From Candidatus Omnitrophota bacterium (GTDB lineage Bacteria > Omnitrophota > Gorgyraeia > JAHJTE01), in assembly GCA_018830005.1 (NCBI GenBank), contig JAHJTE010000003.1, positions 135,674-199,673 on the forward strand: a stretch of 64,000 nucleotides of DNA, read 5' to 3'. Position 1 is the stretch's first letter, and every line of letters starts with the position of its first letter. The notes under the pieces were generated by a model. It saw nothing but the letters and a program-made list of their open reading frames with translations. It made no database searches and was not told the DNA's origin. A program made the translations under genes and the position numbers. Positions 1 through 15,428 of this stretch are shown here, in pieces.

Positions 1-360
1 TAATGACGATTACTGAAGCGACGAGCTGTATTAACCTTATGGAGATAATGCGAGGGGATAAAACTAGCGCAGCACATAAACACGATAGGGATATAAGTAA
101 ACGCGTAAAGAATCTCCAATTAACTGTTTTTAAGCCACGTAGGAGAAAAACTAAAAAAGTTAATATGGCCAGCAAAGTAAGCCAAGTAAATGAATTTGAC
201 AATAATAGTTTCATCTTTATACCTTATATAACTAATCTAAACGCTAATTTTATATTATTACGTCCCAAGCTATAATTTTAATATTTTGGTTAATCTAATC
301 AAAATAAATAGTCTATTAAGAAATTATAAATCTATTTTGGCTTGTCTTTTCACATCTAAA

Positions 361-400
361 CAAAAACCCCCTGCAATGTATTCTATCACAGAGGCTTAGG
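361..400. repeat. 40-bp element, copy A (35/40 identical to 12478-12517)
   Basis: By-eye alignment of caaaaaccccctgcaatgtattctatcacagaggcttagg with the copy at 12478; both lie just left of tRNA-3'-end-like segments. Confidence 0.6.
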
Positions 401-425
401 AAATCAAGCTCCCCCGCGAGGACTC
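399..425. repeat. att-like copy of tRNA-Asn 3' end (18-bp exact match 408-425 = 55561-55578)
   Basis: gctcccccgcgaggactc is identical to the acceptor/T-stem segment of the tRNA at 55561-55578. The preceding atcaa also matches, apart from a 3-bp gap. Confidence 0.6.
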
Positions 426-627
426 CTCGCTTCGCGCTAGAACCTGTCGCTTTTATAAAGTAGCCCCCGCTCGATCACTCACTCCCCATTATGTAGGGAA
501 GATTTTATTTCTGCTTTATTAATCCAAATTCTTCTTTACTAATTATGTTATTTATTTTAAAATAAGAAAGGAATAGAAGAATGATAAGAGACAGGCAAAT
601 AAAAGAGGGGAGGAAAATTTTACGATT

Positions 628-2787
628 ATGAGTCAAGAAATTCTTCACAAACACCACTTCCTGCCGCGTGAAGTTATCACGTTTATTATTATAACTATAT
701 TGAGTGGTATTTGTTTATTTAACTTTGTCTCTCTCGAGCCTACTGTTGATAATAACTTTTTCTTCTCCAGCGAAGATCCACAATTTCAAAGCGAACATTT
801 AATTAACAGTTTATTCATCCGTAAAGACTCCCAGCTTATTATCTCAGCCACTGGTAATATTAATGGTACAGGATACCACGAAAAGATTTCAGAGCTGAGT
901 AAAAGATTGCTAGAAATCGATGGCGTAACCAATGTTAATAGTCTAACGCATGCGGGACCAGGTGATGTAAAAGCGGCCTTTAAGAGCCCTCTGTGGAAAC
1001 GCCTCATTGTCGCCAGCAACAGAAAATCAACCAATCTCATTGTCCTTTTAGACGAAAATAAAGTCTCCCTAATCATCCCAGAGATTGAAGAAACCATGGG
1101 CATCTTCGAGGATGAAGGTTTTCATCTGCAGGCAGCCGGACTGCCTTACGTTGTTGAATTAATTAGGCGTAACCTTCAGAAGGACTTTAGAATCTTCAGC
1201 CTCCTGGCCTTTTTAATATTCGGCTTTTTAATCTTTCAGATTTTTCGTTCAAAAAGTATCCTTTTAGGAACAATGCTATCCTGTCTGAATGCGGTTATGT
1301 GGACATTTAAGATAACGGATTTAATTGGTATTCCTATGGGCATTCTCACAGCGAATCTAGGTACGATTATTTTTGTTATGACACTTTCCCATATTATCTT
1401 TTTGACATTTAATTGGCGGATCTTCCGCTCTGATCCAAATAGTAAGAATCCTGTGGCTGACGCCATAGCACGAACACTGCCTCCTTCTATCTGGAGTATG
1501 CTGACAACGCTTTTAGGATTTTTAAGTTTGATGTCCGTATCAGCGAAACCTTTAAGGGAATTGGGTCACTCCGGTGCCCTCGGTTCTATAGTGGCGATCG
1601 TTGTGGCCTACGGTGTGTTTCCTACATTCTTAAGAGTGGCAAGCCAGCAGTCTGAGAAAAAAGGTAAGATTGAAAACTATGGAATAAAGACATATAAGTT
1701 TATTAACCTAGAAAAACAATTTATCATGCTGATCATTTTTGTCACCTGCCTTTTGACCTTACCGGGATTAAAAAGGCTTGATTCTGATCCGAGTCTTCTT
1801 TCTTACTTTTCTAAATCCAGTGAAATTCATAAGGGTCTAAGTTATATTGATCAAAACGGTGGCAGTAGTCCGCTTATTCTAGTTGTTGGTACAAAAAGTA
1901 AGGAGAAAATTCATTCGGACAAATCTTATAAGCAGCTATGGAATCTCCAGGAATCACTGGAGCAACACCGTGGCGTTGGCTCAGTCATATCCTTGCCCGT
2001 GCTCATTGCCCAAGCCGCAAAGACGCCTATTTTTGGCTGGCTTTTTCCGCGATCAATTCTGTTAAAAGCAATGGAGATGCCGACGAACGATAAGATTGCC
2101 AAGAGCTTTATAACAAAAGACCGTAAATATGGTCTCTTCTATCTGCGCATGATCGAATCATATCGTGTTCTGCCTCGCCTGGATGTTGTTGAAGAGATTA
2201 AATCCATAGCTGAGAATGAAGGCTTTCATACCGAAATCATCGGAGGCATATACAACCTGCAAGGACACTTAGCTAAGCTTGTTGCATCAAGTTTAGTAGG
2301 AGGACTGGGGAAACTTATTCTCCTTTTTGCTCTTATTACCTGGTTTATTTCGCGCTCTTTGCGTATGACCTTAGCTGTGGTAGCTAGTATTTCTATCATC
2401 CCCTTGACCATCCTGGGATGCTTTGGGGTATATCGAATCCCCTTAGACATTATTTCTGCTCCGGCTTCGAATGTCGCGATCGCCATGGGCATTGATTCCA
2501 TGATCCATATGATAAAATCTTTCCGTCGTACGCGAAACTGGCAAACGGTCCGCGATGAACTCTGGCAGCCAATATTAACTTCTATGTTTGTTGTTGCCGC
2601 TGGCTTCGGTATCTTTTTATTATCGAGCTTTCCTCCCACCCAGCGATTTGGCGGGGCTATTCTCTTCGGTACTGTCCTAGCAGCACTTACTGCCCTCTAC
2701 ATAATGCCCTTACTTTTCGAATATATTAGTTTGGATAAATGGAGGTCTCTTCTAAAGAAAAAACCAAAGACAACCACCTCTACTTGA
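628..2787 (+). CDS. RND-superfamily exporter (MMPL/HpnN-like, two 6-TM SSD-type bundles)
   Basis: 719 aa. Two internally repeated hydrophobic 6-TM blocks, each preceded by a soluble loop. The architecture and TM motifs (GxxxD/E...IPL) are typical of RND/MMPL transporters. Confidence 0.7.
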   Translation: MSQEILHKHHFLPREVITFIIITILSGICLFNFVSLEPTVDNNFFFSSEDPQFQSEHLINSLFIRKDSQLIISATGNINGTGYHEKISELSKRLLEIDGVTNVNSLTHAGPGDVKAAFKSPLWKRLIVASNRKSTNLIVLLDENKVSLIIPEIEETMGIFEDEGFHLQAAGLPYVVELIRRNLQKDFRIFSLLAFLIFGFLIFQIFRSKSILLGTMLSCLNAVMWTFKITDLIGIPMGILTANLGTIIFVMTLSHIIFLTFNWRIFRSDPNSKNPVADAIARTLPPSIWSMLTTLLGFLSLMSVSAKPLRELGHSGALGSIVAIVVAYGVFPTFLRVASQQSEKKGKIENYGIKTYKFINLEKQFIMLIIFVTCLLTLPGLKRLDSDPSLLSYFSKSSEIHKGLSYIDQNGGSSPLILVVGTKSKEKIHSDKSYKQLWNLQESLEQHRGVGSVISLPVLIAQAAKTPIFGWLFPRSILLKAMEMPTNDKIAKSFITKDRKYGLFYLRMIESYRVLPRLDVVEEIKSIAENEGFHTEIIGGIYNLQGHLAKLVASSLVGGLGKLILLFALITWFISRSLRMTLAVVASISIIPLTILGCFGVYRIPLDIISAPASNVAIAMGIDSMIHMIKSFRRTRNWQTVRDELWQPILTSMFVVAAGFGIFLLSSFPPTQRFGGAILFGTVLAALTALYIMPLLFEYISLDKWRSLLKKKPKTTTST

Positions 2788-2838
2788 TTATTTAAGATTT
2801 ACGCTTCTCCTAGCTTTGCAACGACTAAAAATAAAAAA

Positions 2839-2866
2839 GCCCCAAATAAATTGGGGCATTTTTTAT
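2839..2866 (+). terminator. rho-independent terminator after the RND gene
   Basis: gccccaa-ataaa-ttggggc hairpin followed by a T-run. Confidence 0.6.
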
Positions 2867-3016
2867 TCCTCCTGCCCTATTGGCGAGATAAGCTCTCTGA
2901 GGTAGCTAGAGTTAATTATAAGTACCTACAAAGGAACTTGCAGGCATGTGTTTAAAAAGGAATGTCAAGCCGATCAACAACCCGGACCGCCGAAGCGGTC
3001 CGAGCGTCGTCAAAAC

Positions 3017-3047
3017 TGGCTCCCCCTATTGGACGAATTTCGCAACT
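3017..3047. repeat. conserved intergenic motif copy R1 (tggctccccctattggacgaatttcgcaact)
   Basis: Core ccctattggacgaNtttcgcaact is shared with copies at 4876, 5646 and 11555. Confidence 0.6.
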
Positions 3048-3183
3048 TTTTAACTTCTCAAGAGGCGAACAAAATATTCAAGGAACTTATTTACGTCCTT
3101 GGCTAGTATTTATCTTACTGGACTGACATCCTTGAATAACATTGGGGGCTATAATAAATTTGTCAATTAACTGCGCGTATCCG

Positions 3184-4701
3184 TTATTTTCTCCGCATCA
3201 TCTTAATAAAATAGTTACGGAAACACTCCCAGTCACCCACAATGATTCTATTTATCGCAAATTGAAGGTTGTCCAGCAGCGTAATTATTCTAAAGACAAT
3301 CATAGTCAATACAGGAAATGCGATACTAACTTTATAGTAGAATTTTGGTAAAAAAAATCTGGCTATCCACCGCGGGAAAAAGCTTAGATTAAGCAGAAGT
3401 AAAATGATATCATAGGAATTATGAGGCTCAAAATGATAACTGCTTCTGTACGCCTGTTTAATCTCGTCAATTGCCAACCCTTTTTCTTTAGCAATCTTGT
3501 TCAGTTTCGTTCCCGGAAACAACATAAGATTATAATATATAAACCTGTATGGCCTAGGAATTTTTAACAAAAATCCAATACTCTCTCTCTGTTCGCCAAT
3601 TGTACCTAAAGGATCATGGCAGATTATATCATATCTAGGCGGAGACATACGATCTCTATAGCGATTAATCATGCTTATTGCTCGATAGATAGTTTTTGTG
3701 TCGGCTTTACGGTTGTAGCGCATTAAAGCAGTCAAGCTACCCGACTCTATCCCCATACAAAGATTACATAACCCTACCTCAACCAAGGCTTCTAGTTTCT
3801 CTTCGGTTACTGCTGAAGGAACAGTGATTGCCTTAAATGGAAGAGAAACTCTTTCCTTGTACATTCTACTAAACTCAATAATCTCTTCGCTACTTCTTGA
3901 AAAGAAACTATCATCTGCAAAGTGAATAAGCTCTATAAAATCATTTTCTCTACAGACATTCTCAAGCTCCTTGATTACGTCTGATATGGACCTTTTTCGA
4001 TAATGCCTAGCTGTGTACATAGAGTGATAAATTGAATTATTGCAGTAAGTACATGCAAAGGGACAGCCTCGGGAGGTCATAGTTTTATAAAAACATCGGT
4101 AAACTCCTCTGGCATCTTCATATACACGCCTACATTTTTCACGGTAAAGTTCACGTGTCAATTCCCCAGATTGTCCCATAATAGGATTAATGTAGAAATG
4201 GTCCTCAAAAGTAAAGTCCTGAAACGGAAGAGTAGAGATATCTTCTATTAGCGGAGAAAAGGAATTTTCTACAATCTTTCCCTTCTCAATATACCAAAGT
4301 CCGAGTATTTGAGAAATTGGTTTGCCGTCCATAATATCTTTTAATACTGGCTCGCCTTCTCCTACACATACCCAATCTGCAAATTTAAGACATTCCAGAG
4401 GCCTAACTGTAGCATGTATCCCGCCCCAAATTATTTTTGCCCTTGTGTTTTTATGAATAGCTTCGCTTAGCTGAGCAGCGAGAAAGAATAGATTAGTAAT
4501 AACTGTAATACCTACTATATCGCTATCATTTAAAATATTAACTACTTCCTGCAGGGTAACATTAGAATAAGATTTAAGTAAGGTAGGAGTGGGTAGAAAA
4601 ATGATTCTAGATTTATGGCCAAGACTTCGTACATAAGAAGAAAGGACACGCGAGCTCATCCCCGAAAACTCATCTACCATTGAAATAAAGGTTATTTTCA
4701 T
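3184..4701 (-). CDS. B12-binding domain radical SAM protein
   Basis: N-terminal Rossmann-like B12-binding region. CxxxCxxC cluster motif (RGCPFACTYC). 505 aa. Confidence 0.75.
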   Translation of the reverse strand: MKITFISMVDEFSGMSSRVLSSYVRSLGHKSRIIFLPTPTLLKSYSNVTLQEVVNILNDSDIVGITVITNLFFLAAQLSEAIHKNTRAKIIWGGIHATVRPLECLKFADWVCVGEGEPVLKDIMDGKPISQILGLWYIEKGKIVENSFSPLIEDISTLPFQDFTFEDHFYINPIMGQSGELTRELYREKCRRVYEDARGVYRCFYKTMTSRGCPFACTYCNNSIYHSMYTARHYRKRSISDVIKELENVCRENDFIELIHFADDSFFSRSSEEIIEFSRMYKERVSLPFKAITVPSAVTEEKLEALVEVGLCNLCMGIESGSLTALMRYNRKADTKTIYRAISMINRYRDRMSPPRYDIICHDPLGTIGEQRESIGFLLKIPRPYRFIYYNLMLFPGTKLNKIAKEKGLAIDEIKQAYRSSYHFEPHNSYDIILLLLNLSFFPRWIARFFLPKFYYKVSIAFPVLTMIVFRIITLLDNLQFAINRIIVGDWECFRNYFIKMMRRK

Positions 4702-4841
4702 ATTATATGCCGCGTTATTAGAAAACTAAAAATAATAGGCTCTCAATTCATAGTTGCTTGACTCAATTATAACTCCGCCAATAAAAATGGGCGGTCCTAT
4801 TTTTCTAAATTTCATTATACGCCGCGAAGGGAAATTTACAA

Positions 4842-4872
4842 TAAAAAAGCCCACCTTATTCAGATGGGCTGA
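4842..4872 (-). terminator. rho-independent terminator (minus strand)
   Basis: agccca...tgggct stem preceded by an A-run on plus, which is a U-run on minus. It lies downstream of the Cys-rich peptide gene. Confidence 0.5.
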
Positions 4873-4875
4873 ATT

Positions 4876-4905
4876 TTCTCCCCCTATTGGATGACTTTCG
4901 CAACT
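4876..4905. repeat. conserved intergenic motif copy R2
   Basis: ttctccccctattggatgactttcgcaact. Confidence 0.6.
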
Positions 4906-4969
4906 GGCTAATAATAAGAAAGGGGTGCTATATAAACACCCCTTTCTTAAAGCTGCCAGCTAATCAGAT

Positions 4970-5188
4970 TTAATCTACTTTTTTAGCGCAGCTACAACCT
5001 CTCTTACAATTACATGCGTTGTCCTTACAGCAATCGCCTTTGCAAGCGCACTGTTTTTCCCTGCAACATGTTTCCTGTGTGCACTGGCATTTAGCCTGCA
5101 AGCAACACTTCTCTTGCGCTAAAGTTGGTGTATTACTAAAAGGCAGCAAAAATGAAAGTAAAAACAATATCACAATTGTTTTTTTCAT
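4970..5188 (-). CDS. secreted Cys-rich metallothionein-like peptide (signal peptide + ~48-aa mature region with 18 Cys)
   Basis: Signal peptide MKKTIVILFLLSFLLPF...LAQE, then CC/CxC/CxxC clusters (KCCLQAKCQCTQETCC...CACKGDCCKDNACNCKRGCSC). Confidence 0.55.
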   Translation of the reverse strand: MKKTIVILFLLSFLLPFSNTPTLAQEKCCLQAKCQCTQETCCREKQCACKGDCCKDNACNCKRGCSCAKKVD

Positions 5189-5230
5189 GATAATACTCCT
5201 TTTTAAAAAGATTTACTTAAATATTACAAA

Positions 5231-5533
5231 TTAGGAATATTGCTTAGGAGGATGGAAGATTGACCGAATGGATTCTTCAGGCTGGACAAAGATATATTCA
5301 AAATCAAAATTCTCTTCTGGAAATATTATAGAAATTGCATCGGTATTTTTTATAGAGTCTACTGGCTGGGATATTTTCACACATAATTGAGGTTGACAAT
5401 CGCAAGATGAACCGCAACAGTCACATGCCTTATGCATCTTATGCGAATCTTTAATAAACATTTCAGAGAAGGAACATAAAACCAATGAGATAAAAATGAA
5501 CGTAAATAGAATTGTTATAAATATTTTTCTCAT
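5231..5533 (-). CDS. secreted small protein with CDCCGSSCDC motif
   Basis: N-terminal signal/TM segment. Cys cluster CDCCGSSCDCQPQLC. Adjacent to the other Cys-rich peptide. Confidence 0.45.
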   Translation of the reverse strand: MRKIFITILFTFIFISLVLCSFSEMFIKDSHKMHKACDCCGSSCDCQPQLCVKISQPVDSIKNTDAISIIFPEENFDFEYIFVQPEESIRSIFHPPKQYS

Positions 5534-5599
5534 AGATACTCACCTAAATAGCATTTTAAGTATAGCATAATTTTTTAAGAAAAACAAATCAACAAGCCA

Positions 5600-5637
5600 T
5601 AAAAAACCCTCCGCAAGTTTTTAATTTGCAGAGGGTT
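5600..5637 (-). terminator. rho-independent terminator of acr3 copy A
   Basis: aaccctccgcaa...ttgcagagggtt hairpin plus an A-run on plus (U-run on minus). Nearly identical to the terminator at 6838-6872. Confidence 0.65.
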
Positions 5638-5645
5638 GTGGAATT

Positions 5646-5675
5646 TTCTCCCCCTATTGGACGACTTTCGCAACT
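5646..5675. repeat. conserved intergenic motif copy R3
   Basis: ttctccccctattggacgactttcgcaact. Confidence 0.6.
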
Positions 5676-5722
5676 TTTTGGAAGAATCTAAGGAGTATTG
5701 CCTTAACGATGAAATAAAGAAA

Positions 5723-6787
5723 TTACTTGAAGAAATGTCGAGTTTTCAAACACATTCGCACTAACATTAGCATAACTGGCACTTCAATAAGTACTCCAAC
5801 CACAGTTGCCAACGATGCTCCTGATGAAAGACCAAACAACATAGCAGAAGTAGCAATTGCAACTTCAAAGTGATTGCTCGCTCCAATTAGTGCAGACGGT
5901 GCGGCATCTCTGTAGGGTAACTTTAACCATTTAGCGATTGCATATGTTAAAGCAAAAATGAAACAGGTCTGGATAAAAAGTGGTATAGCTATTAAAAATA
6001 TTACTTGGGGCTGCTCAATAATAAGTTCTCCTTTAAACGAAAATAATAGAACAAGCGTAACAAGCAACGCCCCGATTGATATTGGTGTCAAATAATGAAG
6101 GAATTTTTCCTCAAACCATTTCATTCCTTTTTTAGCAATGATAAGTTTTCTTGAGTGATACCCTAAAAAGAGTGGCAGCCCCACATAGGTAACTACTGAC
6201 AATACAATTGTCTGCCACGGAATGGGCATCCTGTTTACACCTAAAAGCCAACCTCCCAATGGTGCATAAAGAAACAACATTGTGAGTGAATTTATTGCTA
6301 CCATAACAAGTGTATGACCATCATTACCTTTTGACAGATGCCCCCAAACAAGCACCATTGCTGTACAAGGAGCTATGCCTAATAAGATACAGCCAGAAAT
6401 ATATGAACGGTAAAGTTCAACCTGCGTACCACCTTTGATAATCTCAAATCCTGGGAGTAGCCCCTTAAATAAAACACCTAAAAATAAAGTAGCTATTGCA
6501 AGCATAGTGAAAGGTTTGATGCACCAGTTTACAAACAGGGTAAGCAAAACAGGTTTAGGACTTTTTCCTGCCTTAACAACCTCAGCGAAATCAATTTTAA
6601 CCATAATCGGATACATCATAAAGAAAAGGCATATCGCAATAGGTATAGATACCTGATAAATTGATATGCTGTCTAAGGTAACGGCAACTTGGGGGAATAA
6701 TTTACCCAAGAGTATTCCCAGACCGATACACCCTATAACCCATAGGGTAAGATATTTCTCAAAGGAACTTAATTGTCGTTCTTCCAT
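5723..6787 (-). CDS. acr3: arsenite efflux transporter, Acr3 family (copy A)
   Basis: 354 aa, about 10 TM. N-terminal FEKYLTLWV and the [13 protein letters not shown] and PCTAMV motifs are typical of the ACR3/BART family. Confidence 0.85.
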
Positions 6788-6837
6788 CTTTTTCTCCTCT
6801 GAATCTTACGACTTAGTTAAGTTATAATTCTACCTCA

Positions 6838-6872
6838 AACAAAAACCCTCCGCAAGTTTTTAATTTGCAGAG
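6838..6872 (-). terminator. rho-independent terminator of acr3 copy B
   Basis: Same hairpin as at 5600-5637. Confidence 0.65.
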
Positions 6873-6885
6873 GATTAGTGTAATT

Positions 6886-6920
6886 TTCTCCCCGAGACCC
6901 CCAAAAATCCGAACTTTTGG
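6886..6920. repeat. diverged motif copy R4 (ttctccccgagaccc...aaaatccgaacttttgg)
   Basis: Shares the ttttctcccc start with the other copies, then carries an atccgaactttt motif that also recurs at 11298-11450. Confidence 0.4.
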
Positions 6921-7015
6921 CAAGCAACAATATATCTAGGAAAGAACGGGCTAAAGAACGGAGAAAGGTGGAAAATTTTAGTTTAGCACTCACACTGCTT
7001 TGGCTGGTATTTCTT

Positions 7016-8209
7016 TTATTTAAACCATCCTCGCGTATTCAGGCAAACACGCACAAGCATCAGCATCACAGGAACCTCAATCAGCACGCCAACAACAGTC
7101 GCCAACGCTGCTCCCGACGAAAGCCCAAAAAGCATAGTCGCCGTTGCAATAGCAACCTCGAAATGATTACTTGCGCCAATCATTGCCGAGGGAGCCGCAT
7201 CCTCATAACTCAACCTCAATTTCTTCGCCAGCCAATATGTTATACCAAATATCAAGCATGTCTGGATAAATAAAGGAATTGCTATCCATAAAATCGTCAA
7301 CGGCTTAGCAAGGATAACTGCCCCTTTAAAAGAGAACAAAAGAACCAACGTAAAAAGTAAAGCAATTATTGAGACTGGTGACAGCACATGCAAAAACTTC
7401 TCATTAAACCAATCTATTCCTTTATGACTTATAATCCACTTTCTTGAAAAAAAACCTGCAACTAACGGCAACGCAACATAGATAGCAATAGATAACAGCA
7501 ACGCTTGCCACGGAACAGGCATCCTTCCCACACCAAGAAGGAACCCACCAAGCACACCGTAAAGCAAAAGCATTGTTAAGGAATTGATAGCAACCATAAC
7601 AAGGGTGTGTCCGTCATTGCCTTTTGCAAGAAATCCCCAGACCAAAACCATTGCTGTGCATGGAGCTATACCGAGAAGAATACATCCAGCAAAATAGCTT
7701 CTCCACAAAGGCACCTGCAACATTCTCATTCCTTCATGCATAACAACCTGACCTGCACCATGAATTGAACCTACAGCCCAATCTATTGCTCCAGGAGGGA
7801 GTTTTACAAAATCCACTGCTTCTGCACCAATAAAACCCTTAAACAGCACACCCAAAAACAGAAAAGCAATAGCATACATGGTAAAAGGTTTTATTGCCCA
7901 GTTTACAAATAGCGTTAAACCAACAGGCTTGGGCGACTTGCCAGCCTTAATAACCTCAGCAAAATCAATCTTAACCATGATAGGATACATCATGAAAAAA
8001 AGACATATCGCAATGGGAACCGAAACAACAGGAGCACCACCGACATAAATAGAAAGGCCGTCAAGACACTTCGCCATTCCAGGCGCAATCTTACCTATTA
8101 AGATACCCCCGCCGATACACAACAAAACCCACAGCGTCAGATACTTCTCAAAAACCGACATACCCCTATTAACATTCTTTTCCATTTTTATATCTCCACA
8201 CTCCATCAT
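7016..8209 (-). CDS. acr3: arsenite efflux transporter, Acr3 family (copy B, with ~45-aa insertion)
   Basis: Paralog of copy A with high identity across the TM regions. It carries an extra loop ([38 protein letters not shown]). The start may be the internal MSVFEKYL. Confidence 0.8.
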
Positions 8210-8886
8210 AAATAGTTAATCATGATGTGTGACCAGACAAAATATATCCCTACCACAATAAATATCACTCCTGTAATCTTTCTTGCCCATAATTCTAATT
8301 TTGCAGTCTTATGAAACCACTTCGAAAACGACTTCACGCCAAAAACAATCCCCAACGCAAAAATGGTAACAGGAATTCCTGTGCCGATACCGTAAATAAA
8401 AGGATAAGTCATCCCTATTTTACTGTTCAATGCAAGTGGGATAAGGCTTCCGAAGAACAATGCGGCAGCAATAGGACAGAATGATAAGGCGAAAAGCATC
8501 CCGAGAAGAAATGCTCCGCCAGTTCCTGACTCAGCCAGCTTATTCTGCTTCTCATGAGACAACGAAAAAGAAAACGAACTGAACCTGATAACGTCAAGAA
8601 GAAACAATCCGACAATTAACAGAATTGGCCCAATTATCTTATTCAGATAAATTTGCAGAAAATTTGCTATAGATGGAACGCTTACGAGAGAAGCGATAAT
8701 GACAGAACCGATAACTGCGTAAGTCACCATCCTCCCGAGAACGTAAGCAATGCTCGAAAGAAACACAGCCATGGGATGATTAACCTTCTTTGAAAGAAAA
8801 GAAACAGCCGCAATATTCGTTGCAAGCGGACAAGGACTGATGGAAGTAAGTATGCCAAGCCACAAAGCAGACAAAAGCTCAATCAT
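8206..8886 (-). CDS. ccdA: cytochrome c biogenesis/thiol-disulfide transporter CcdA (DsbD transmembrane domain)
   Basis: [10 protein letters not shown] motif at the first TM. 6-TM, 226 aa. Overlaps neighbouring genes (ATGA). Confidence 0.7.
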
Positions 8887-9380
8887 GAGGAACCCCCTGC
8901 AATAAACGCTTCGGTCTCCTTTTTGACGTAATCAAAAAACTGCTGCTTGTTCCTAATAAATTGCCAGACACCCTCAAGGTTTTTGTAACCGACTTCTTTT
9001 CCGTCCTCAACTTTTGAAAGGACTACGCTTTTTGTGTAAAGCTTGTAATCATTAACGAAGTGCTCATTGCCTTTTTCCTCAACATTCACGGCACGGAACT
9101 CAAGCCCTCCGGAAGCAATCTCGTCGCTGAAATAAAGCTCCAAGGCTTCCTTTGTATAAGCCTCAATAGCTTTGCACGAGGCGCATCTGTAATTGCCGTA
9201 AAAATAATACGCAACAACGCCGGAATCAGAAACAGGAACAGAAGCGATAGGCGATGAGTCGACGCTTGAGGCGTCTTCAACAACTCCCAAAGAAGACGTA
9301 TCGCTCTCTTTAGGCGAATCACAGCCAGGAAGAAAAGACATGGCGAGAAGACCTACGGCTAAAAAAACAGGCAAAAACAA
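8883..9380 (-). CDS. thioredoxin-fold lipoprotein (CxxC)
   Basis: Lipobox FLPGC. CASC redox motif. Positioned between the Thioredoxin_3 gene and CcdA. Confidence 0.4.
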   Translation of the reverse strand: MFLPVFLAVGLLAMSFLPGCDSPKESDTSSLGVVEDASSVDSSPIASVPVSDSGVVAYYFYGNYRCASCKAIEAYTKEALELYFSDEIASGGLEFRAVNVEEKGNEHFVNDYKLYTKSVVLSKVEDGKEVGYKNLEGVWQFIRNKQQFFDYVKKETEAFIAGGSS

Positions 9381-9410
9381 AAACTTTTTCGTTTGATCAT
9401 CCTCCCCTAT

Positions 9411-9641
9411 TTATGAAAACATTCCTTTAATCTCATCACTCGAAGGCACCTTTCCTGCAACCTTCACCTTTCCGTCAACAACCAAAGCAGGCGTGGTCAT
9501 AACGCCATACTCCGTTATCTTGTCCATATCCTCAACCTTGATTAGCTCTGCATCAACACCTATCTCATCAACAGCTTTTTGTGCATTATCATATAACTGC
9601 TTGCACTTAGGACAACCCATGCCCAAAATCTCAATTTTCAT
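9411..9641 (-). CDS. small thioredoxin family protein (redox-active disulfide protein 2 type, GCPKC)
   Basis: Start trimmed to the internal MKIEILGMGCPKC, which has a GGGAGG SD 8 nt upstream. 76 aa. This is the classic partner of DUF318 permeases. Confidence 0.7.
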   Translation of the reverse strand: MKIEILGMGCPKCKQLYDNAQKAVDEIGVDAELIKVEDMDKITEYGVMTTPALVVDGKVKVAGKVPSSDEIKGMFS

Positions 9642-9663
9642 CTCTAATACCTCCCTAAATAAT

Positions 9664-10848
9664 TTAGCCTGCAATCATTCCAAATATAATTCCGCTCAGA
9701 GTTGCCATAACGACAACAAGGCCAACATAGACAACAGTCTTCTTAGTTCCTATAACACCTCTAATAACAAGCATATTGGGAAGACTCAAAGCAGGCCCTG
9801 CAAGAAGCAATGCAAGTGCTGGCCCTTTTCCCATGCCAGAACCAATCAAGCCCTGAAGTATGGGAACTTCTGTAAGTGTTGCAAAATACATGAACGCCCC
9901 GACAATTGACGCAAAAAAGTTAGCGAAAAGCGAATTGCCGCCAACAAGCCTCTCAATGAACACTGAAGGGATCAAACCCTCTTGCCCCGGTCTTCCCAAA
10001 AGAAGACCAGCAACCAAAACGCCTGCAAGAAGAAGAGGCATAATCTGCTTTGCAAAACCCCACGAACTCTGCGTCCATTCTTTAAGCTTGTTTTTCTTAA
10101 ACCACCGAAATAACATGATGCCAAGAAGGGATAGAAAAATAAGCGTAATCACCCATTTTGAACCAAAAATAGTAGCCCACAAGCCTGTATCGCCTTCCTG
10201 TGGTTTTCCCCAATTAGCAAAAACAAGAACTGCGACCATAGAGAAAAAATACATTCCGTTCTTCCAAAGAGGTCGCGTTTTCTCTTCTTCGCCGAATTGA
10301 AACTTTCCGTTAACCTGTCTTTCTCGCTCCTCTTTGAGAAATATGAGGTGCATCAGAAGACCGACGACTACACTAAAAACGATTACCCCGACAGCTCTCG
10401 CCACACCAAGCTGCCAACCAAGAATCCTCGCAGTCATTATTATAGCCAAAACATTAATTGCTGGCCCCGAATACAGAAACGCAACAGCAGGCCCAAGCCC
10501 GGCACCCTTCTTGTAGATACCCGAAAACAGAGGAAGAACCGTGCAGGAACAAACAGCAAGAATAGTTCCCGAAACAGAAGCCACGCCGTAAGCAACAATC
10601 TTCTTTGCCTCAGCACCGAAATACTTAATGACAGAAGCCTGACTCACAAAAACAGAAATCGCCCCAGCAATAAAAAAGGCCGGAACAAGACACAACAAAA
10701 CATGCTCCCTTGCATACCACCGCACAAGAGCTAATGACTCAAACAAAGGATTTCTGAAAGGCAGAAGTTCGACAGGCAAATAAAAGCACGCCAAAAACGC
10801 CGCCGTCATCAACAAAAACTTGTCTCTTTCCTTCATTCTTATCTCCAC
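9664..10848 (-). CDS. DUF318/ArsP-type permease (putative organoarsenical efflux)
   Basis: Two 4-5-TM halves. CSC motif in TM (AVCSCTVLPLFSG) as in ArsP. Lies directly downstream of arsR. Confidence 0.6.
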   Translation of the reverse strand: MEIRMKERDKFLLMTAAFLACFYLPVELLPFRNPLFESLALVRWYAREHVLLCLVPAFFIAGAISVFVSQASVIKYFGAEAKKIVAYGVASVSGTILAVCSCTVLPLFSGIYKKGAGLGPAVAFLYSGPAINVLAIIMTARILGWQLGVARAVGVIVFSVVVGLLMHLIFLKEERERQVNGKFQFGEEEKTRPLWKNGMYFFSMVAVLVFANWGKPQEGDTGLWATIFGSKWVITLIFLSLLGIMLFRWFKKNKLKEWTQSSWGFAKQIMPLLLAGVLVAGLLLGRPGQEGLIPSVFIERLVGGNSLFANFFASIVGAFMYFATLTEVPILQGLIGSGMGKGPALALLLAGPALSLPNMLVIRGVIGTKKTVVYVGLVVVMATLSGIIFGMIAG

Positions 10849-10885
10849 ATTTCCATCTGGTTATGTAATTTCGGCAAAAAAATAT

Positions 10886-11227
10886 TCATTTCCTGCAACA
10901 GAGCTTTTTCCTGTTAGCTTTCTCTGCCCTCTTTAAATCATCAATCATTGCCTTGTCATCATTCAGCCACTGACTAAGCATAGCAAGCAGCTTCTTTGCA
11001 TAAAGATTCTTCGGGCTAACAAAATAGTTAGTCCAAAAACCGTCCTGTTCAGAAGCAACAAGGCCAGCACCCACCAACTTTTTAAGCTGTTTGGACACCG
11101 CAGGCTGAGAAACCCCAAGAACAAACGCAAGCTCACAAACACACATCTTACGCTTCTCAAGAAGCTTCAGAATCCTCACCCTGTTAACATCAGCCAACGC
11201 CTTAAAGATAGTATCCAAATCTTTCAT
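10886..11227 (-). CDS. arsR: ArsR/SmtB-family metalloregulator
   Basis: wHTH (VNRVRILKLL...CVCELAFVLGVSQPAVSKQLKKL) carrying the CVC metalloid-binding motif. Start taken at MKDLDTIF. Confidence 0.75.
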   Translation of the reverse strand: MKDLDTIFKALADVNRVRILKLLEKRKMCVCELAFVLGVSQPAVSKQLKKLVGAGLVASEQDGFWTNYFVSPKNLYAKKLLAMLSQWLNDDKAMIDDLKRAEKANRKKLCCRK

Positions 11228-11297
11228 AAATATACACCCTTTCACAACCAAATAACTAAACGGTTATATAAATCTTACTGTTTCCAACCCAAGAAGT

Positions 11298-11460
11298 CAA
11301 GAACAAAAAAGTTCGGATATTTGAATAAGGGGGGTCGATTCAGACAAAATCCGAACTCTGTATTTCTACTGCGAAAAACGCATTTTCCATATAAAAAAGC
11401 CCCAGCTACGATAAGTAACTGAGGCTATATCCGAAAAAAGTTCGGATTTTCAAATTGGCT
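11298..11460. promoter_or_regulatory. candidate operator: aaaagttcggat direct and inverted copies upstream of arsR
   Basis: agttcggat at about 11300 and 11437, and atccgaact at about 11354. They lie in the arsR upstream region. The same motif occurs at 6896. Confidence 0.3.
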
Positions 11461-11554
11461 CCCCGAAACGTTCTCTCATCAAACCACATTCACCTATGAG
11501 TTTCGATTTACGATACGGAGAACTGCTCACGGACAGAAGCGGCTTTCTTCAAAA

Positions 11555-11583
11555 CCCTCCCCTATTGGACGAGTTTCGCAACT
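11555..11583. repeat. conserved intergenic motif copy R5
   Basis: ccctcccctattggacgagtttcgcaact. Confidence 0.55.
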
Positions 11584-11654
11584 GGCTGGACTCAGAAAGA
11601 GACAACATCCATAATCTGAGTCTCAAGTAATTGTTAATATAAACTTAACTAAGC

Positions 11655-12449
11655 TCAATGTAGCACTTTGAAAGACTGGACTATCTTCGCCATTGTCTCA
11701 AGCAATTCCTCATCTGGAGGGTCGCGTGTAATCCGGATAAATTGCACAGAGCTAAAATGGCCTTTTAGGAAGCGGATTGCCCCATATATCTGCCGAAGAC
11801 TGCTGACCAGTCCAGACTCAAACACGGCTTCTTTATGAAAAATAATCATATCACCCAATACGTTACAAATAATTACCTTAGGGTTTAGGTTTCCGTTAGA
11901 GTCCAATCCAGTTATTACTTGTTTCTGTTCAGGGGTAACATTATTTAAAACAGAGTCATCGATTGAGATATGTTCCGATTTCGATAATTCGCTACAAAAA
12001 TTTGAAATTGTAAGATTTTCTACTTGGCTACGCAATCTCTCTTGAATAGCAACAGGAAACATATCTATAAATAAACCAACTGCTATAGGGTCATATAATC
12101 CCCCCAAAGCCTGCGCTCCCACCCACGTTCTGCCGGACCTAACCACAAGAGTGCCCCATAATACACTTTTACCCTTGTGCAATCCATATGAAAATTGCGG
12201 AAAGAAAATCGCTTCTCCTGAATCGCCGCCAGGCATATCTACATTATCAACATTTTTCGGAATACCAAAACTTACAGGATATGAAAATTCAAAACGATTC
12301 TGAGTATCGCGATAAATACTCCATTTTTCATTTGATGCTGTCTTCGAAAAAGGCGATTCCGCGAATGCCACCGCTAAAAAATGCACCAATCCAATAAAAA
12401 CAATAAGGACAAACGCAATAACAATATCAATAAATATTCTCCTCTTCAT
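11655..12449 (-). CDS. hypothetical membrane-anchored protein
   Basis: N-terminal TM helix. No recognisable motifs. Confidence 0.35.
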   Translation of the reverse strand: MKRRIFIDIVIAFVLIVFIGLVHFLAVAFAESPFSKTASNEKWSIYRDTQNRFEFSYPVSFGIPKNVDNVDMPGGDSGEAIFFPQFSYGLHKGKSVLWGTLVVRSGRTWVGAQALGGLYDPIAVGLFIDMFPVAIQERLRSQVENLTISNFCSELSKSEHISIDDSVLNNVTPEQKQVITGLDSNGNLNPKVIICNVLGDMIIFHKEAVFESGLVSSLRQIYGAIRFLKGHFSSVQFIRITRDPPDEELLETMAKIVQSFKVLH

Positions 12450-12477
12450 CTTTTCTCCTTTTGATATTCAGCTAAAA

Positions 12478-12517
12478 CAAAAACCCACTGCAATATATTA
12501 TATCACAGTGGGTTAGG
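12478..12517. repeat. 40-bp element, copy B (aacccactg...cagtgggtt hairpin)
   Basis: 35/40 identity to 361-400. Contains a 9-bp perfect inverted repeat. Confidence 0.6.
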
Positions 12518-12564
12518 ATGGCAACTCCACGCTTAGAGTCAGTTAAAACGGAGCCCCATTAAAA

Positions 12565-12984
12565 GTGGGGCTCCGTTTGAAGTGGCTCCCCGAGCGAGAC
12601 TCGAAGCGAACAATAAGGCGTGTCGTAACTGATGAATTGCCATACCATTACAGATGGCACAATAAAACAAAAACTCTATTTCGGGGCAAAAAGCCGGATT
12701 TTATTCCAAGAGGCAAGATTGTTTCAAAGAAAGAACTGCGGCATTACAAGTATTTGCAGGAGTATAAAAACCCGATTAAGAAGGCGATGGGATTTCAGCG
12801 GATCATGCAGGAAGAAAACCTGAACCAAGGACAACTGGCAAAAAAAATGGGAATATCACGAGTAAGAATAACTCAAGTATTAAACCTGCTCAAGCTACCA
12901 CAAGAACAACAGACTTACGTTTTGGAATATGGTAAAAAAGAACAAATAACCGAAAGAATGTTAAGAGAATCTCCGAACCATTAA
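12565..12984 (+). CDS. ParB-like HTH protein (truncated relative to full ParB)
   Basis: ENLNQGQLAKKMGISRVRITQVLNLLKLPQEQQ resembles the ParB/KorB HTH. The N-terminal ParB nuclease-like domain is absent. Confidence 0.4.
   Translation: MGLRLKWLPERDSKRTIRRVVTDELPYHYRWHNKTKTLFRGKKPDFIPRGKIVSKKELRHYKYLQEYKNPIKKAMGFQRIMQEENLNQGQLAKKMGISRVRITQVLNLLKLPQEQQTYVLEYGKKEQITERMLRESPNH
12583..12608. repeat. degenerate att-like copy of tRNA 3' end (tggctccccgagcgagactcgaagcg)
   Basis: About 75% identical to the tRNA-Asn 3' segment tggctcccccgcgaggactcgaacc, in the same orientation. Confidence 0.45.
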
Positions 12985-15428
12985 TTATTCGTTGGCTTCA
13001 TATTCATCGCCAATAGTACAGATTTTAAATAATTATTTCTTCCGTAACATAACAATAGTCTATTTACTGTATTAACGCTAAATCCCTGATCAGGAATATT
13101 AAATCTGATTTTCCCCAAAAATCTATAACTCTGTTGAGCACTATCAATATTTTGTTTATCCATCCATTGCCAATCTTTTTGAGCTTGATTATATGAAGAA
13201 TCCAACTCCGACAATAATGTGGATATAATCTGATTTGCTTTTGTTTGATCCGTTTCATTCCCCACAGAAAGAAATATTTTATGTAAAACTTGCCTTAAAT
13301 CCCTCAATTTTCCAGCTTTTCTCATTTCTAAACAAATAAAAGAATTAGCCTCAAATGTAAATTCATAAGCACTCATCTTTTTCGATAAATTTTCCCACAA
13401 GCATTGCCCCTTATTAGAAACTTTCAATATTTCTTCCCATCGGAACTGATTATCAGTATATAAAATTGCCCCTGTTAATTGAGCAAGAAAGAAACCCAAC
13501 TCAAAATTTGGCGTTAAATGAGATATAAGTATCTGCCCTGCTCCCTTTTTCCCAACAGACGGCTGCAATAAGGCAAGAGGATCTGCCTTGCGCTGCTGTT
13601 TCATATATTCTAATACTTTTTCTGTATCGTCTTCAGACAAATCAGGCAAAGCTTTTGTAATATTATGCCTCAAGCTTTCCTCCGGCAACCCACTCATCAT
13701 CCTTTTTATATCATCCATACAAAGATCCTTCATTGGTGCCATTTGATCATCGCTCAACTTAAGTCCTTTAAGGCGAGATTGAGCCATTTCCCATATTTGC
13801 TTTTGAAGTTGAAGATTCAAAGAACAAGGATCAGGAATCAAATTAATGATTCCTTTTTCAATAAAAGGCATTAACTGCATAAATAACAATGCGTTTTTAA
13901 GTGTCTCTTGTTTATATTGAGCAGGTGATTCAACAGGATTATATTCTGGTTTTATGTATGTGGGATTCATAAATGGGTTCATAACCAATATTTCATCAAA
14001 ATAAAGCGAATAACTAATAACATTTTGAAGAATTGTTCTCGGGTCAATCAGGCCAGCATAAAGAACCCTTGATACTCTTTTATCAGGCATTGGTAATAAC
14101 TCAATTATATTTGTCCCTTTAGGCCATAAACATTCAAATGCCTTATGAATATCTGCAACCTGCTTATCACTTAATTCGGCACGAATATCTTCCCATGTTT
14201 TTCCCCGTGATAATCCCAAAATATTCATCAACATGTTAAAAAACATTAAATTCCGTTCTCTAATACTCCGCACATTAGTTATTGGCATCTCACCTGATTT
14301 CTTATCCCTACAGCATTTTTTGTATTTTTTCCCACTACCACAAATGCATTCATCATTAGCCCCGACTTTCTCCTTTCTTTCTGGCTTTTTTAGATATGAC
14401 AAATCACCTACAGTGCGACCATATGCATCTTGATAATGAGTTCTACCATCTTCATAACCAACATATATTTCCCCTCCAAAATGATGCAACTCATTCTTAG
14501 GTGGCATTAACACTCGCCCCAACTCCGACCACTCACATCTAATTTCTTTCTCAGGAAATAACCATTCTTTTTGGGCTGCGGCTACATATCTTCGTGCACG
14601 ACACTTTAAAATCAAATTTATTTTATTTACATCATTAGCCTCTATTTTACGCGAGCGTATCATTGCATCAATACGCGAAATCGTCGAATCAAAATGTCTC
14701 GCATTCGTCCTGTTCGAAAGTAAGTCTTGGCTATCCGAATCTTTTGCATATTCTAAATTTGTTAAAATAAGACAATGATTTAAGTCTAGAGGAAATATAG
14801 TCTGAGAACCCTTAAAAGAAATTAAAGGATCATCGGGGTACTTACAATGAGTAGAATCAGGCGGGCAAGCAGCATTATATATTGTCACAGGGTGATCAGT
14901 AATAATAAATTTTACATCTGAGTCTTCAGCAGACACAATTTCACGGGTTGCTTCAACCCACATCGTACAGTGCATTTGTCTTATATGCTGCATTTCAAGC
15001 AACAATTGAATCTTATTTATACCAGGATACTTTGTTTGAAGCCAATTCAATCCCTTTGGTGTTCGAATCTTTTGGGCATCTAAATATCCAAAGAACTCCT
15101 GGAAGGTTTTATGCATCGAAAGAAAATCGTTACTAATAAATGCCCGAATCGCAGCAAAACCAAATGTATCAATTTCACCAAAAAGATACTTTTCAATCTC
15201 ATCATTAATTAAACCAAAAAAGAATGTCGTGTATAAATCCTTTTCACAAAAACACTGTGACGGCGACCACCAGTGATAACTGTTAAAGACAACTTCTTTG
15301 CCATTAGGAAGAATCTTTTTATCTGGATGTAAATTTAGATAACAAAGCTTACTCCCCTTTGATAATAAAAATCTCTTTTGATACCATTCTGGTACATAAT
15401 GATTTTTTCTAGTTACAGATTTTTGCAT
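12981..15428 (-). CDS. DUF4238-like N-terminal domain + SEC-C metal-binding motif protein (815 aa)
   Basis: N-terminal NHYVPEWYQKRF matches the HYVPQFYLRNF signature I associate with DUF4238. CICGSGKKYKKCC is a canonical SEC-C motif. Confidence 0.5.
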   Translation of the reverse strand: MQKSVTRKNHYVPEWYQKRFLLSKGSKLCYLNLHPDKKILPNGKEVVFNSYHWWSPSQCFCEKDLYTTFFFGLINDEIEKYLFGEIDTFGFAAIRAFISNDFLSMHKTFQEFFGYLDAQKIRTPKGLNWLQTKYPGINKIQLLLEMQHIRQMHCTMWVEATREIVSAEDSDVKFIITDHPVTIYNAACPPDSTHCKYPDDPLISFKGSQTIFPLDLNHCLILTNLEYAKDSDSQDLLSNRTNARHFDSTISRIDAMIRSRKIEANDVNKINLILKCRARRYVAAAQKEWLFPEKEIRCEWSELGRVLMPPKNELHHFGGEIYVGYEDGRTHYQDAYGRTVGDLSYLKKPERKEKVGANDECICGSGKKYKKCCRDKKSGEMPITNVRSIRERNLMFFNMLMNILGLSRGKTWEDIRAELSDKQVADIHKAFECLWPKGTNIIELLPMPDKRVSRVLYAGLIDPRTILQNVISYSLYFDEILVMNPFMNPTYIKPEYNPVESPAQYKQETLKNALLFMQLMPFIEKGIINLIPDPCSLNLQLQKQIWEMAQSRLKGLKLSDDQMAPMKDLCMDDIKRMMSGLPEESLRHNITKALPDLSEDDTEKVLEYMKQQRKADPLALLQPSVGKKGAGQILISHLTPNFELGFFLAQLTGAILYTDNQFRWEEILKVSNKGQCLWENLSKKMSAYEFTFEANSFICLEMRKAGKLRDLRQVLHKIFLSVGNETDQTKANQIISTLLSELDSSYNQAQKDWQWMDKQNIDSAQQSYRFLGKIRFNIPDQGFSVNTVNRLLLCYGRNNYLKSVLLAMNMKPTNN

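Follow-up and report, generated by a model that had tools for sequence, protein, structure and literature searches.

Genes and transcription units at the locus

We analyzed a 64,000-nucleotide (nt) stretch of DNA from a Candidatus Omnitrophota bacterium (GenBank assembly GCA_018830005.1, contig JAHJTE010000003.1, positions 135,674 to 199,673 of the forward strand), hereafter referred to as the window. Here, two small genes for Cys-rich peptides of 100 and 72 amino acids (aa), which we call p100 and p72, lie between an arsenic island and a gene for a B12-binding radical S-adenosylmethionine (SAM) enzyme (rSAM). The source genome has a size of 1.65 Mb on four contigs and is 95% complete. An initial annotation of the window had called the open reading frames (ORFs) for the rSAM, p72 and p100, and all three were confirmed on the minus strand (Table 1). 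It had also regarded both peptides as exported metallothionein (MT)-like products that stand next to the rSAM. This neighborhood exists physically but does not extend to a common transcription unit, as the 268 nt between p72 and the rSAM gene contain a terminator and a promoter-like site besides two strong hairpins.

The terminator behind the arsenite pump gene ACR3a (−18.3 kcal/mol, z = −3.76) folded better than all of 200 shuffled sequences and separates the ars genes from p100 and p72. The 3′ end of p72 is followed by a 15-bp hairpin (at about 4915–4949), a copy of a 35-nt intergenic repeat (4871–4905) and a terminator with a 9-bp stem and a U run (4848–4870). This region as a whole reached −42.7 kcal/mol (z = −5.7), and again none of 200 shuffles folded as well. 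Because of these terminators, the promoter-like site and the spacing of only 42 nt between the two small genes, we read p100 and p72 as one unit bounded by terminators and the rSAM gene as another. The promoter-like site of the rSAM gene is a consensus match alone, and such sites were no more numerous in this region than in shuffled sequences. The candidate extended −10 element of the p100-p72 unit was not reported by the consensus promoter scan, an adequate −35 element being absent. An Rfam search of window positions 1–14000 yielded nothing near the gathering score; its two sub-threshold matches were a hairpin and noise.

Table 1 Features of the p100-p72 locus in minus-strand order (ACR3, p100, p72, rSAM). 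Positions are those of the window; SD, Shine-Dalgarno sequence.
Feature	Positions	Strand	Description	Basis
ACR3a	5723–6787	minus	Arsenite pump, first gene in this order
Terminator after ACR3a	5602–5640	minus	Intrinsic terminator; 12-bp stem, 9-nt loop, U run	Folding
Candidate extended −10	5559–5567	minus	TGcTATACT, putative promoter element of the p100-p72 unit, downstream of the ACR3a terminator	By eye, inferred
p100	5231–5533	minus	100 aa; N-terminal signal or anchor helix, Cys cluster, C-terminal FHPP motif; candidate CutF-like leader/sensor	ORF
p100-p72 spacer	5189–5230	minus	42 nt, holds the p72 SD	Sequence
p72	4970–5188	minus	72-aa precursor, Sec-type signal by sequence, MT-like	ORF
End of the p100-p72 unit	4848–4949	minus	Hairpin, 35-nt repeat and intrinsic terminator	Folding
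Promoter-like site	4814–4841	minus	TTGTAA-16-TATAAT, 10/12 consensus, assigned to the rSAM gene; immediately follows the p72 terminator	Consensus scan
rSAM	3184–4701	minus	Class-B (B12-binding) rSAM, 505 aa, hydrophobic C-terminal tail; neighbor outside the p100-p72 unit	ORF, Pfam

p72 resembles metallothioneins in composition

The number of Cys residues in p72 is 14 and not 18, as had been counted initially. All of them are located in the 48-aa part behind the predicted TLA/QEK cleavage site (29% Cys), where they form three CC-x4-CxC units and a final CxC with a repeat length of 12–13 residues. The mature part contains no aromatic residue and no His and has a net charge of +4. The N-terminus, which consists of MKK, a hydrophobic core and the TLA/QEK site, looks like a Sec-type signal; for both p72 and p100, signal peptides were judged by eye and hydrophobicity only. 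Among the 6,736 six-frame ORFs of at least 40 aa in the source genome, p72 is the most Cys-rich (Cys fraction 0.194, compared to 0.170 for the next best and a mean of 0.025). This rank, together with the conservation of the Cys framework in other genomes, indicates that the Cys richness is not due to chance.

In the alignment of the p72 family (A1), 12 Cys positions are invariant or nearly so. The 29 distinct members have a mature part of ~50 aa with on average 29% Cys and a net charge of +2 to +6, and contain in total six aromatic residues and eight His. The Cys count is odd in 18 of the 29 members, so that not all Cys of the family can sit in internal disulfides. Relatives retrieved in protein searches were unnamed or labeled “hypothetical protein”; a word-indexed search with p72 alone returned only itself and one 57% identical protein, and the best score of a language-model (Atlas) search, 0.84, was uninformative. 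AlphaFold2 (AF2) predicted no fold for p72 (mean predicted local distance difference test score, pLDDT, 53.4).

Metallothioneins are operationally defined by a low mass, a Cys content of ~30% in CC and CxC clusters, and a scarcity of aromatic residues and His. p72 has this composition, whereas a match to a described MT family was not obtained (neither Pfam nor NCBIfam gave one at E up to 0.01). Like animal MT1/2 and the bacterial SmtA/BmtA, MymT and PmtA, it is small, carries ~30% Cys in CC, CxC and CxxxxC clusters, is almost devoid of aromatic residues and His and has no predicted metal-free fold. In contrast to these proteins, p72 has a predicted Sec signal and would therefore act outside the cytoplasm, has its own 12–13-residue CC-x4-CxC repeat, belongs to no Pfam MT family, and is paired with a putative leader gene or with CsoR (see below). 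Hence, the sequence supports the view that p72 is a MT-like and apparently exported peptide outside the described MT families, and this part of the initial annotation was corroborated by composition and signal. The same did not apply to p100.

p100 is strictly paired with p72

A six-frame search of 401 genomes of the phylum revealed p72-like ORFs in 21 of them. We fetched 16 of these loci, leaving out the weak p72 matches in genomes G003, G024, G166 and G211 (E = 0.003–0.009). Every fetched locus contained an ORF of 62–87 aa that starts with a signal-like region and shares the Cys framework; in one of them a stop codon breaks the frame. The gene directly upstream was p100-like at 13 loci and a CsoR-family gene at the remaining three. 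When the same 401 genomes were searched with a profile of the p100 family (alignment A2), 17 p100 genes gave strong matches (E at most 6e-8), and three of them were new. All 17 are followed, at a distance of 26–59 nt on the same strand, by a Cys-rich ORF of 62–76 aa that has a signal-like N-terminal region and an AGGAG-type SD. With a threshold of E at most 0.01, p100 matches were present in 23 genomes; no pair was found at the weak matches L050–L053, and the weak matches L054 and L055 lie outside the count. The distribution of the pair is patchy, as the sole other genome of the same family possesses neither gene.

p100 starts with MRK and a 16-residue hydrophobic core. The motif CDCCGSSCDC noted in the initial annotation is indeed present (residues 37–46) and is part of the cluster C37-x-C39-C40-x3-C44-x-C46...C51, and a second motif, I92-F-H-P-P-K97, with the two prolines at residues 95–96 of 100, lies four residues from the stop codon. 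Invariant positions in A2 are C37, C39, C44, C51, F93, P95 and P96, and C40 is nearly invariant. Thus, what is conserved in the family is only the N-terminal hydrophobic helix, C-x-CC-x3-C with further Cys behind it, and C-terminal [IV]FHPP[KRN]. An exhaustive profile search of 1.84 billion representative proteins retrieved 78 p100-family clusters. Their representatives comprise 82–112 aa in 73 cases, the other five being two fused frames, two long N-terminal calls and one noise sequence. In 75 of the 78, PP occurs within the last 15 residues, and in all 73 full-length members it is followed by 2–11 residues. The distance from the first Cys cluster to PP has a median of 63 residues (range 46–69, interquartile range 58–66). 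A 15-residue window with a mean Kyte-Doolittle hydropathy above 1.8 was found in 70 of the 78 members, and a VYA-type site in most members examined. By these heuristics the N-terminus could be a cleavable signal or a signal anchor, both being compatible with the hydropathy and with the helix predicted by AF2.

The AF2 model of p100 has an overall pLDDT of 59.5, and only helix 2–35 is predicted with confidence (pLDDT >90). Beyond the Cys cluster and IFHPP the peptide is variable and, in the AF2 model, unstructured, which would be expected of a sensor combined with an arrest motif rather than of a folded domain. Across the 17 loci, the codons for the two prolines differ in their third position, which indicates that selection acts on the peptide. 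No Pfam match was obtained for p100 or for any family member searched. Based on its sequence, p100 does not look like a second MT-like peptide but like a leader/sensor or a membrane partner.

A CsoR-family gene takes the place of p100 at some loci

Considering all 20 p72-type loci examined, p100 is located upstream of p72 at 17, and at the other three (L024, L027 and L029) a CsoR-family gene (PF02583) occupies this position, 12–17 nt upstream. The genomes of these three loci are not among the 23 with a p100 match. Consequently, p72 was preceded by either p100 or CsoR in 20/20 loci and never by neither, which suits a role of p100 as a regulatory device. When aligned to the solved Geobacillus CsoR 4m1p (E = 9e-19), all three CsoR proteins show C-x24-H-x3-C at matching columns; these C-H-C residues presumably bind Cu(I). 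A palindrome ATACCCCC(T/A)GGGGGTAT is present at the promoter of two of the three CsoR-p72 loci, and we take GC-rich palindromes of this kind to be CsoR operators. With respect to the CsoR copper operons (4m1p, 4adz, 2hh7), the p72 genes at these related loci thus resemble known targets in their position 12–17 nt behind a C-H-C-type CsoR and, at two of the three, in the GC-rich promoter palindrome, whereas the window differs in that p100 holds the position of CsoR. No CsoR gene and no HMA-domain gene was found in the source genome. At L027 (8001–8240), a single in-frame TAG stop codon follows the third CC motif of the p72 homolog behind CsoR, which could reflect a pseudogene, recoding or an error in the sequence.

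The wider gene neighborhood of the pair was compared across the other loci. Genes of Cys/Met biosynthesis are located beside it at 11 of 19 loci from at least four families, either as a set comprising Rrf2, O-acetylhomoserine sulfhydrylase, CysK, MetX and MetW or as CysK, Thi4 and HcyBio. Such neighbors fit the high Cys demand of a p72-type product. OEP, HlyD, MacB or MMPL efflux genes were found beside L020, L021, L027 and L028, and the efflux and Cys/Met genes together fit a metal and thiol economy. The arsenic context mentioned in the initial annotation did not recur. None of the 16 fetched loci has a relative of the window's ACR3, ArsF, ArsP or ArsR (tblastn with the window ars proteins), as opposed to the 11 of 19 loci beside Cys/Met genes and the 3 of 19 with CsoR upstream. 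At one of them, L021, Pfam detected an ArsR-family helix-turn-helix gene at a distance of 3 kb. The arsenic setting is therefore specific to the source genome, and the p100-p72 pair is not arsenic-specific. Locus L016 additionally encodes a 254-aa outer-membrane beta-barrel protein (12962–13726) with similarity to PF01308 (Chlamydia major outer membrane protein, MOMP; E = 6.8e-17).

p100 as a candidate CutF-type leader

The features of p100 recall CutF of Rhodobacter capsulatus (cutFOG). According to the CutF reports (PMC9973294; 10.1101/2025.02.05.636593), CutF is exported co-translationally, and copper bound to its CxxxC motif delays export via a C-terminal proline motif, which opens a stem-loop over the cutO ribosome-binding site. 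The rules given there for CutF-like proteins are a length below 150 aa, the presence of a signal peptide, a PP among the last 15 residues, a same-strand gene located downstream, and Cys/His motifs (Ozturk et al. 2023, PMC9973294). With 100 aa, PP at residues 95–96, a same-strand gene 42 nt downstream and a Cys motif, p100 agrees with these rules, and by heuristics its N-terminus may be the signal peptide. It shares with CutF and the CutF-like proteins, among them CruR and CopL, the small size, a Cys metal motif and a proline motif near the stop codon, along with a putative Sec signal. Further common features are a short distance of some tens of nt to a following same-strand gene for a (here putatively) exported protein of metal homeostasis, and the proposed logic of a nascent exported chain by which periplasmic metal is sensed and the next ribosome-binding site is opened. 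Differences to CutF are the lack of hidden Markov model (HMM) homology to DUF2946, the cluster CxCC-x3-C in place of CxxxC, and an SD-masking stem-loop that is not demonstrable for p100-p72. Neighbor classes named for CutF-like genes in the available part of PMC9973294 are OEP, ACR_tran, HlyD_D23, CusF, TonB-like, PCuAC, HupE/UreJ and NosZ/NosR; a MT-like peptide is not named there, nor does the p100 lineage appear among the phyla given in that part for CutF-like proteins.

The explanation that we favor, and to which we give about even chances, is that p100 is a metal-sensing leader that gates the translation of p72, an exported thiolate metal buffer. p72 would be exported by Sec, lose its signal peptide, and serve in the periplasm as a MT-like thiolate buffer for soft metal ions, most likely Cu(I) and possibly As(III) or Cd. 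p100, rather than adding to the metal-binding capacity, would act in cis as a CutF-type leader. The ribosome-bound chain would thread through SecYEG, so that CxCC-x3-C would reach the periplasm as the ribosome arrives at FHPP[K/R]. Metal on the Cys cluster would slow the release of the nascent chain, and a ribosome paused on the last p100 codons would keep the p72 SD, 26–59 nt downstream, accessible. Translation of p72 would then depend on metal outside the cytoplasm, and in some genomes a CsoR repressor may take over this task at the level of transcription. The conservation of the pair, its motifs and spacing, the exchange with CsoR and the missing rSAM link are observations, while export, metal binding, the identity of the metal, pausing and translational control are inferences. 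We also considered a more far-reaching version, which appears rather doubtful at present. Here, p100 would be an independently evolved transmembrane arrest-peptide sensor with the sole task of gating the first natural Sec-exported bacterial metallothionein, and the spacing of ~63 residues would set the Cys cluster just outside SecYEG when FHPP is reached. This translational switch would have been swapped for CsoR elsewhere, and the unit, recruited into the arsenic island in the source genome, may also answer arsenite.

Several observations weigh against p100 as a CutF-type leader of a metal buffer. The p72 SD (AGGAG, 7 nt before the ATG) is able to pair with the last p100 codons (AAUAUUCCU with AGGAGUAUU), but the resulting hairpin in the window has little stability (−6.4 kcal/mol, z = −0.27), which was equaled or exceeded in 70 of 200 shuffles. 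Across the 17 loci, the SD is paired with a probability >0.9 in ten, and in nine of the ten its main partner is the 3′ end of p100. The mean pairing probability of 0.84 compares to 0.78 with shuffled upstream sequences (Wilcoxon test, p = 0.12), and there was only one locus among the 17 where no more than 5 of 100 shuffles attained the observed SD pairing. Thus, the SD-masking stem-loop that defines CutF is not statistically supported across the loci. The C-terminal motif [IV]FHPP[KRN] contains PP and differs from PPP in CutF and RAPP in CruR, and already the proline motif of CutF is reportedly not a strong staller by itself. The models PF11162 (DUF2946) and PF20365 (DUF6660) had no match in 14 A2 members (E up to 5) or in 77 of the 78 p100 representatives (E up to 0.1; the 1,025-aa P0193 was left out), and genome scans with both models missed the p100 locus. 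An assignment of p100 to DUF6660 was rejected, as it was suggested by a single language-model (Atlas) score of 0.95 that no HMM confirmed. In two metagenomic proteins, P0176 and P0181 (181 and 208 aa), p100 and p72 form one frame with no stop codon between them; the p72 part of both retains its own Met and signal peptide. Furthermore, the low pLDDT of p72 (53) could reflect a shallow alignment as well as an apo-metallothionein, a DSBA-family gene in the genome makes a periplasmic oxidation of p72 possible, and the metal context in the window is an arsenic island and not a neighboring CsoR gene.

Alternative explanations

The strict pairing of both genes (17/17) suits a protein partner as well as a leader. 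p100 could be a stable, membrane-anchored partner of p72, acting as a periplasm-facing metallochaperone, an anchor or a thiol-redox helper that loads, holds or recycles p72, with FHPP as a binding or sorting signal. The confidently predicted N-terminal helix might well be a signal anchor, p100 has a conserved Cys cluster of its own, the two fused p100-p72 frames would be compatible with a partnership, and the hairpin that the leader model needs lacks statistical support. However, p72 without p100 was observed only where CsoR replaces p100 (3/3), which is easily reconciled with a regulator and hardly with an obligate partner. In addition, conservation and predicted folding are confined to the helix, the Cys cluster and, at the C-terminus, five residues, and the invariant PP lies at 2–11 residues from the stop codon in 73/73 full-length members. 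We consider the partner model, which is the main alternative, unlikely. A different question is whether a leader-buffer unit of this architecture serves arsenite in the source genome, with the vicinal Cys of p100 sensing periplasmic As(III) and p72 buffering it beside two ACR3 pumps after recruitment of the unit into the ars island. The location directly downstream of two ACR3 genes in an ArsR/ArsP_1/ArsE/ArsF/ArsG/ACR3 island and the lack of CsoR and HMA-domain copper genes in the genome favor this idea, and the binding of As(III) to three thiolates is established chemistry. It is nevertheless improbable in light of the 16 loci searched, where relatives of the window's ACR3, ArsF, ArsP and ArsR are missing, of the strong terminator that cuts the unit off from ACR3a, and of the fact that the only dedicated regulators beside p72 are CsoR proteins with Cu(I)-type C-H-C residues.

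The Sec signal, the regular 12–13-residue Cys repeat and the positive net charge of p72 would also be expected for a disulfide-rich exported mini-protein that binds no metal, such as a cross-linked envelope component similar to the small Cys-rich outer-membrane proteins of chlamydiae, or an antimicrobial peptide. The lineage has Chlamydia-MOMP-like proteins (PF01308 in L016), and a DSBA-family gene is present in the source genome. The odd Cys counts in 18/29 members, the failure to find DsbB or VKOR in the genome, the CsoR control at three loci, the lack of a confident AF2 fold and of matches to Pfam chlamydial OMP3/OMP6 or any other family, and the absence of conserved immunity, ABC-exporter or bacteriocin genes beside p72 make this explanation very improbable. 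Finally, the initial annotation had proposed that the B12-rSAM methylates arsenic or acts on both peptides in the manner of a maturase of ribosomally synthesized and post-translationally modified peptides (RiPPs). The genes are indeed close together on one strand, RiPP precursors with Sec signals exist (the bufferins, PMC11626156), and B12-rSAM genes occur near the pair at L018 (adjacent) and L028 (4.5 kb away). These two were, however, the only ones among the 16 p72 loci, their products are distant (26% and 22% identical to the window rSAM) and differently placed, and in the window the rSAM gene is set apart from the pair by a terminator and a promoter-like site. An rSAM gene within 5 kb was observed at 5 of 13 loci compared to about 3 of 13 expected by chance (with 44 rSAM genes; P = 0.17), and one of B12 type at 3 of 13, including the window that had prompted the question (P = 0.07–0.10). 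Conversely, none of 78 loci with rSAM homologs contained a p72 or p100 relative (no match to either HMM at E up to 1 in 4,783 ORFs), whereas these HMMs gave 20 and 16 matches on known loci as a control. The rSAM homologs thus occurred consistently without such peptides, an outcome that the initial annotation itself had named as a refutation. As the rSAM also lacks a SPASM domain, scores 29 bits against the ArsL cut-off of 450, and is encoded in a genome with no MNIO, we regard an action on the peptides or on arsenic as hardly tenable.

The radical SAM gene is an unrelated neighbor

The window rSAM matched PF02310 (B12-binding, E = 2.6e-10), PF04055 (radical SAM, E = 3.2e-14) and, weakly, PF19864. 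With a B12-binding domain and a core carrying CxxxCxxC (C213/C217/C220, invariant in alignment A3) it has the features of a class-B rSAM; Pfam revealed no SPASM/twitch domain. It scored far below all curated NCBIfam cut-offs of the named class-B and arsenic rSAM subfamilies (HpnJ, ladderane rSAM, BchE, PhpK and ArsL), the best being HpnJ with 87.6 bits (cut-off 577.6). HpnJ (TIGR03471) and the ladderane lipid rSAM (TIGR04072) are the nearest named models. The B12-binding domain and the rSAM core with CxxxCxxC are shared with uncharacterized class-B rSAM proteins of envelope glycan/lipid clusters. The genome contains 44 rSAM genes, of which about 13–14 are relatives of the window rSAM. A metagenome scan with alignment A3 yielded the above 78 loci (676 kb), with rSAM homologs of 30–57% identity, among them the orthologs at L056–L058 with 40–57%, while the window rSAM as single query found no match in the same kind of scan and only one 32% identical Acidobacteriota locus in a genome_contigs search. 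Neighbors of the homologs are glycosyltransferases, Lip_A_acyltrans, SAM methyltransferases, polysaccharide exporters and B12-rSAM paralogs. We conclude that the window rSAM belongs to a separate transcription unit, is an unrelated neighbor of the pair, and probably modifies an envelope glycan or lipid. B12-rSAMs of envelope clusters are often tandem paralogs, whereas the window rSAM stands alone and is convergent with a transporter gene.

This gene (628–2787, plus strand) encodes a HAE3/MMPL transporter of the resistance-nodulation-division type. The weak best matches of the rSAM and the transporter are HpnJ and HpnN, respectively, both of which are hopanoid-cluster proteins and far below their cut-offs. 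Dense rSAM arrays are found elsewhere in the genome at C2:267000–365000 (11 genes, including eight B12-type relatives of the window rSAM) and C1:227000–243000 (seven genes). A weak match to the rSAM model is located at C3:277590–277964, on the contig of the window but outside it, within a 10,383-aa open frame of a giant protein gene. The only DSBA-family gene of the genome (C4:86955–87392) directly adjoins a B12-rSAM gene (C4:85469–86527).

Relation to other metal-buffering systems

To our knowledge, the bacterial metallothioneins known so far are cytoplasmic, and the initial view that exported MT-like peptides are unusual was supported. Among the papers listed in a literature search, no natural Sec-exported bacterial metallothionein was described by title or abstract; File S1 and Figs S5–S7 of PMC9973294 may include unnamed Cys-rich genes downstream of CutF-like genes. 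Searches of the literature for DUF6660, periplasmic metallothionein, Omnitrophota together with copper, and the motif strings found no description of p100-p72 among the papers listed.

Periplasmic copper buffering is known from chaperones and Csp-type storage proteins. More recently, it has been described for bufferins, in which BufA precursors are accompanied by the MNIO BufB and the DUF2063 protein BufC (Leprevost et al. 2024, PMC11626156). As Sec-exported, Cys-containing peptides that buffer periplasmic copper, bufferins resemble what we propose for p72. According to the same report they differ in requiring an MNIO that turns Cys into thiooxazoles, and in having 4–6 Cys compared to 14 in p72. 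No match to MNIO (PF05114) was found in the source genome, with a positive Caulobacter control, and PF05114 was also absent when 12 related loci were scanned with Pfam; the neighborhood of p72 contains no conserved modifying enzyme. Three assignments of p72 were considered and rejected. A bufferin is disfavored by the missing MNIO, and a RiPP of the SCIFF/ranthipeptide type by the lack of both a SPASM domain and a conserved maturase. Against a chlamydial OmcA-type protein stand the odd Cys counts, the missing Pfam match and the fact that most members carry no lipobox.

If the proposed function is correct, a plain, unmodified Sec-exported peptide with 14–15 Cys would be a third and much simpler solution for periplasmic copper buffering, found in an uncultured lineage of small genomes about which little is known. 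Should p100 prove to be a CutF-type leader, nascent-chain metal sensing would gain an additional sequence family and phylum as well as another kind of controlled gene. The natural swap between p100 and CsoR offers a clean comparative test of translational versus transcriptional metal control. For annotation, the rSAM/RiPP link is removed as a false lead, and two searchable family profiles become available for genes that are now unnamed or uncalled.

The arsenic island and minor observations

The arsenic island of the initial annotation was confirmed. It spans positions 5723–11251 and comprises two ACR3 genes (TIGR00832, 404 and 380 bits, cut-off 283), ArsG, ArsF and ArsE, which also scored above their NCBIfam cut-offs, an ArsP_1 permease and an ArsR/SmtB regulator. 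ArsG, ArsF and ArsE represent the aromatic-arsenical set, and the island is an organoarsenical-type gene set in an uncultured bacterium with a small genome. The best NCBIfam matches of the ArsP_1-type permease were the SaoE and SO_0444 Cu/Zn efflux models, both well below cut-off. A 264-aa ORF with an N-terminal hydrophobic segment and no Pfam family (11655–12449, minus strand) adjoins the ArsR gene and is followed by a copy of the 35-nt intergenic repeat.

Copies of this direct repeat, 71–97% identical to the reference copy, are present in the window at 3013–3047, 4871–4905, 5641–5675 and 11549–11583, each behind a different gene and just upstream of a terminator hairpin. With a strict pattern, six copies were detected in the genome, four on contig C3 and two on C1. 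Fragments identical to the window were present in DNA runs of three other studies.

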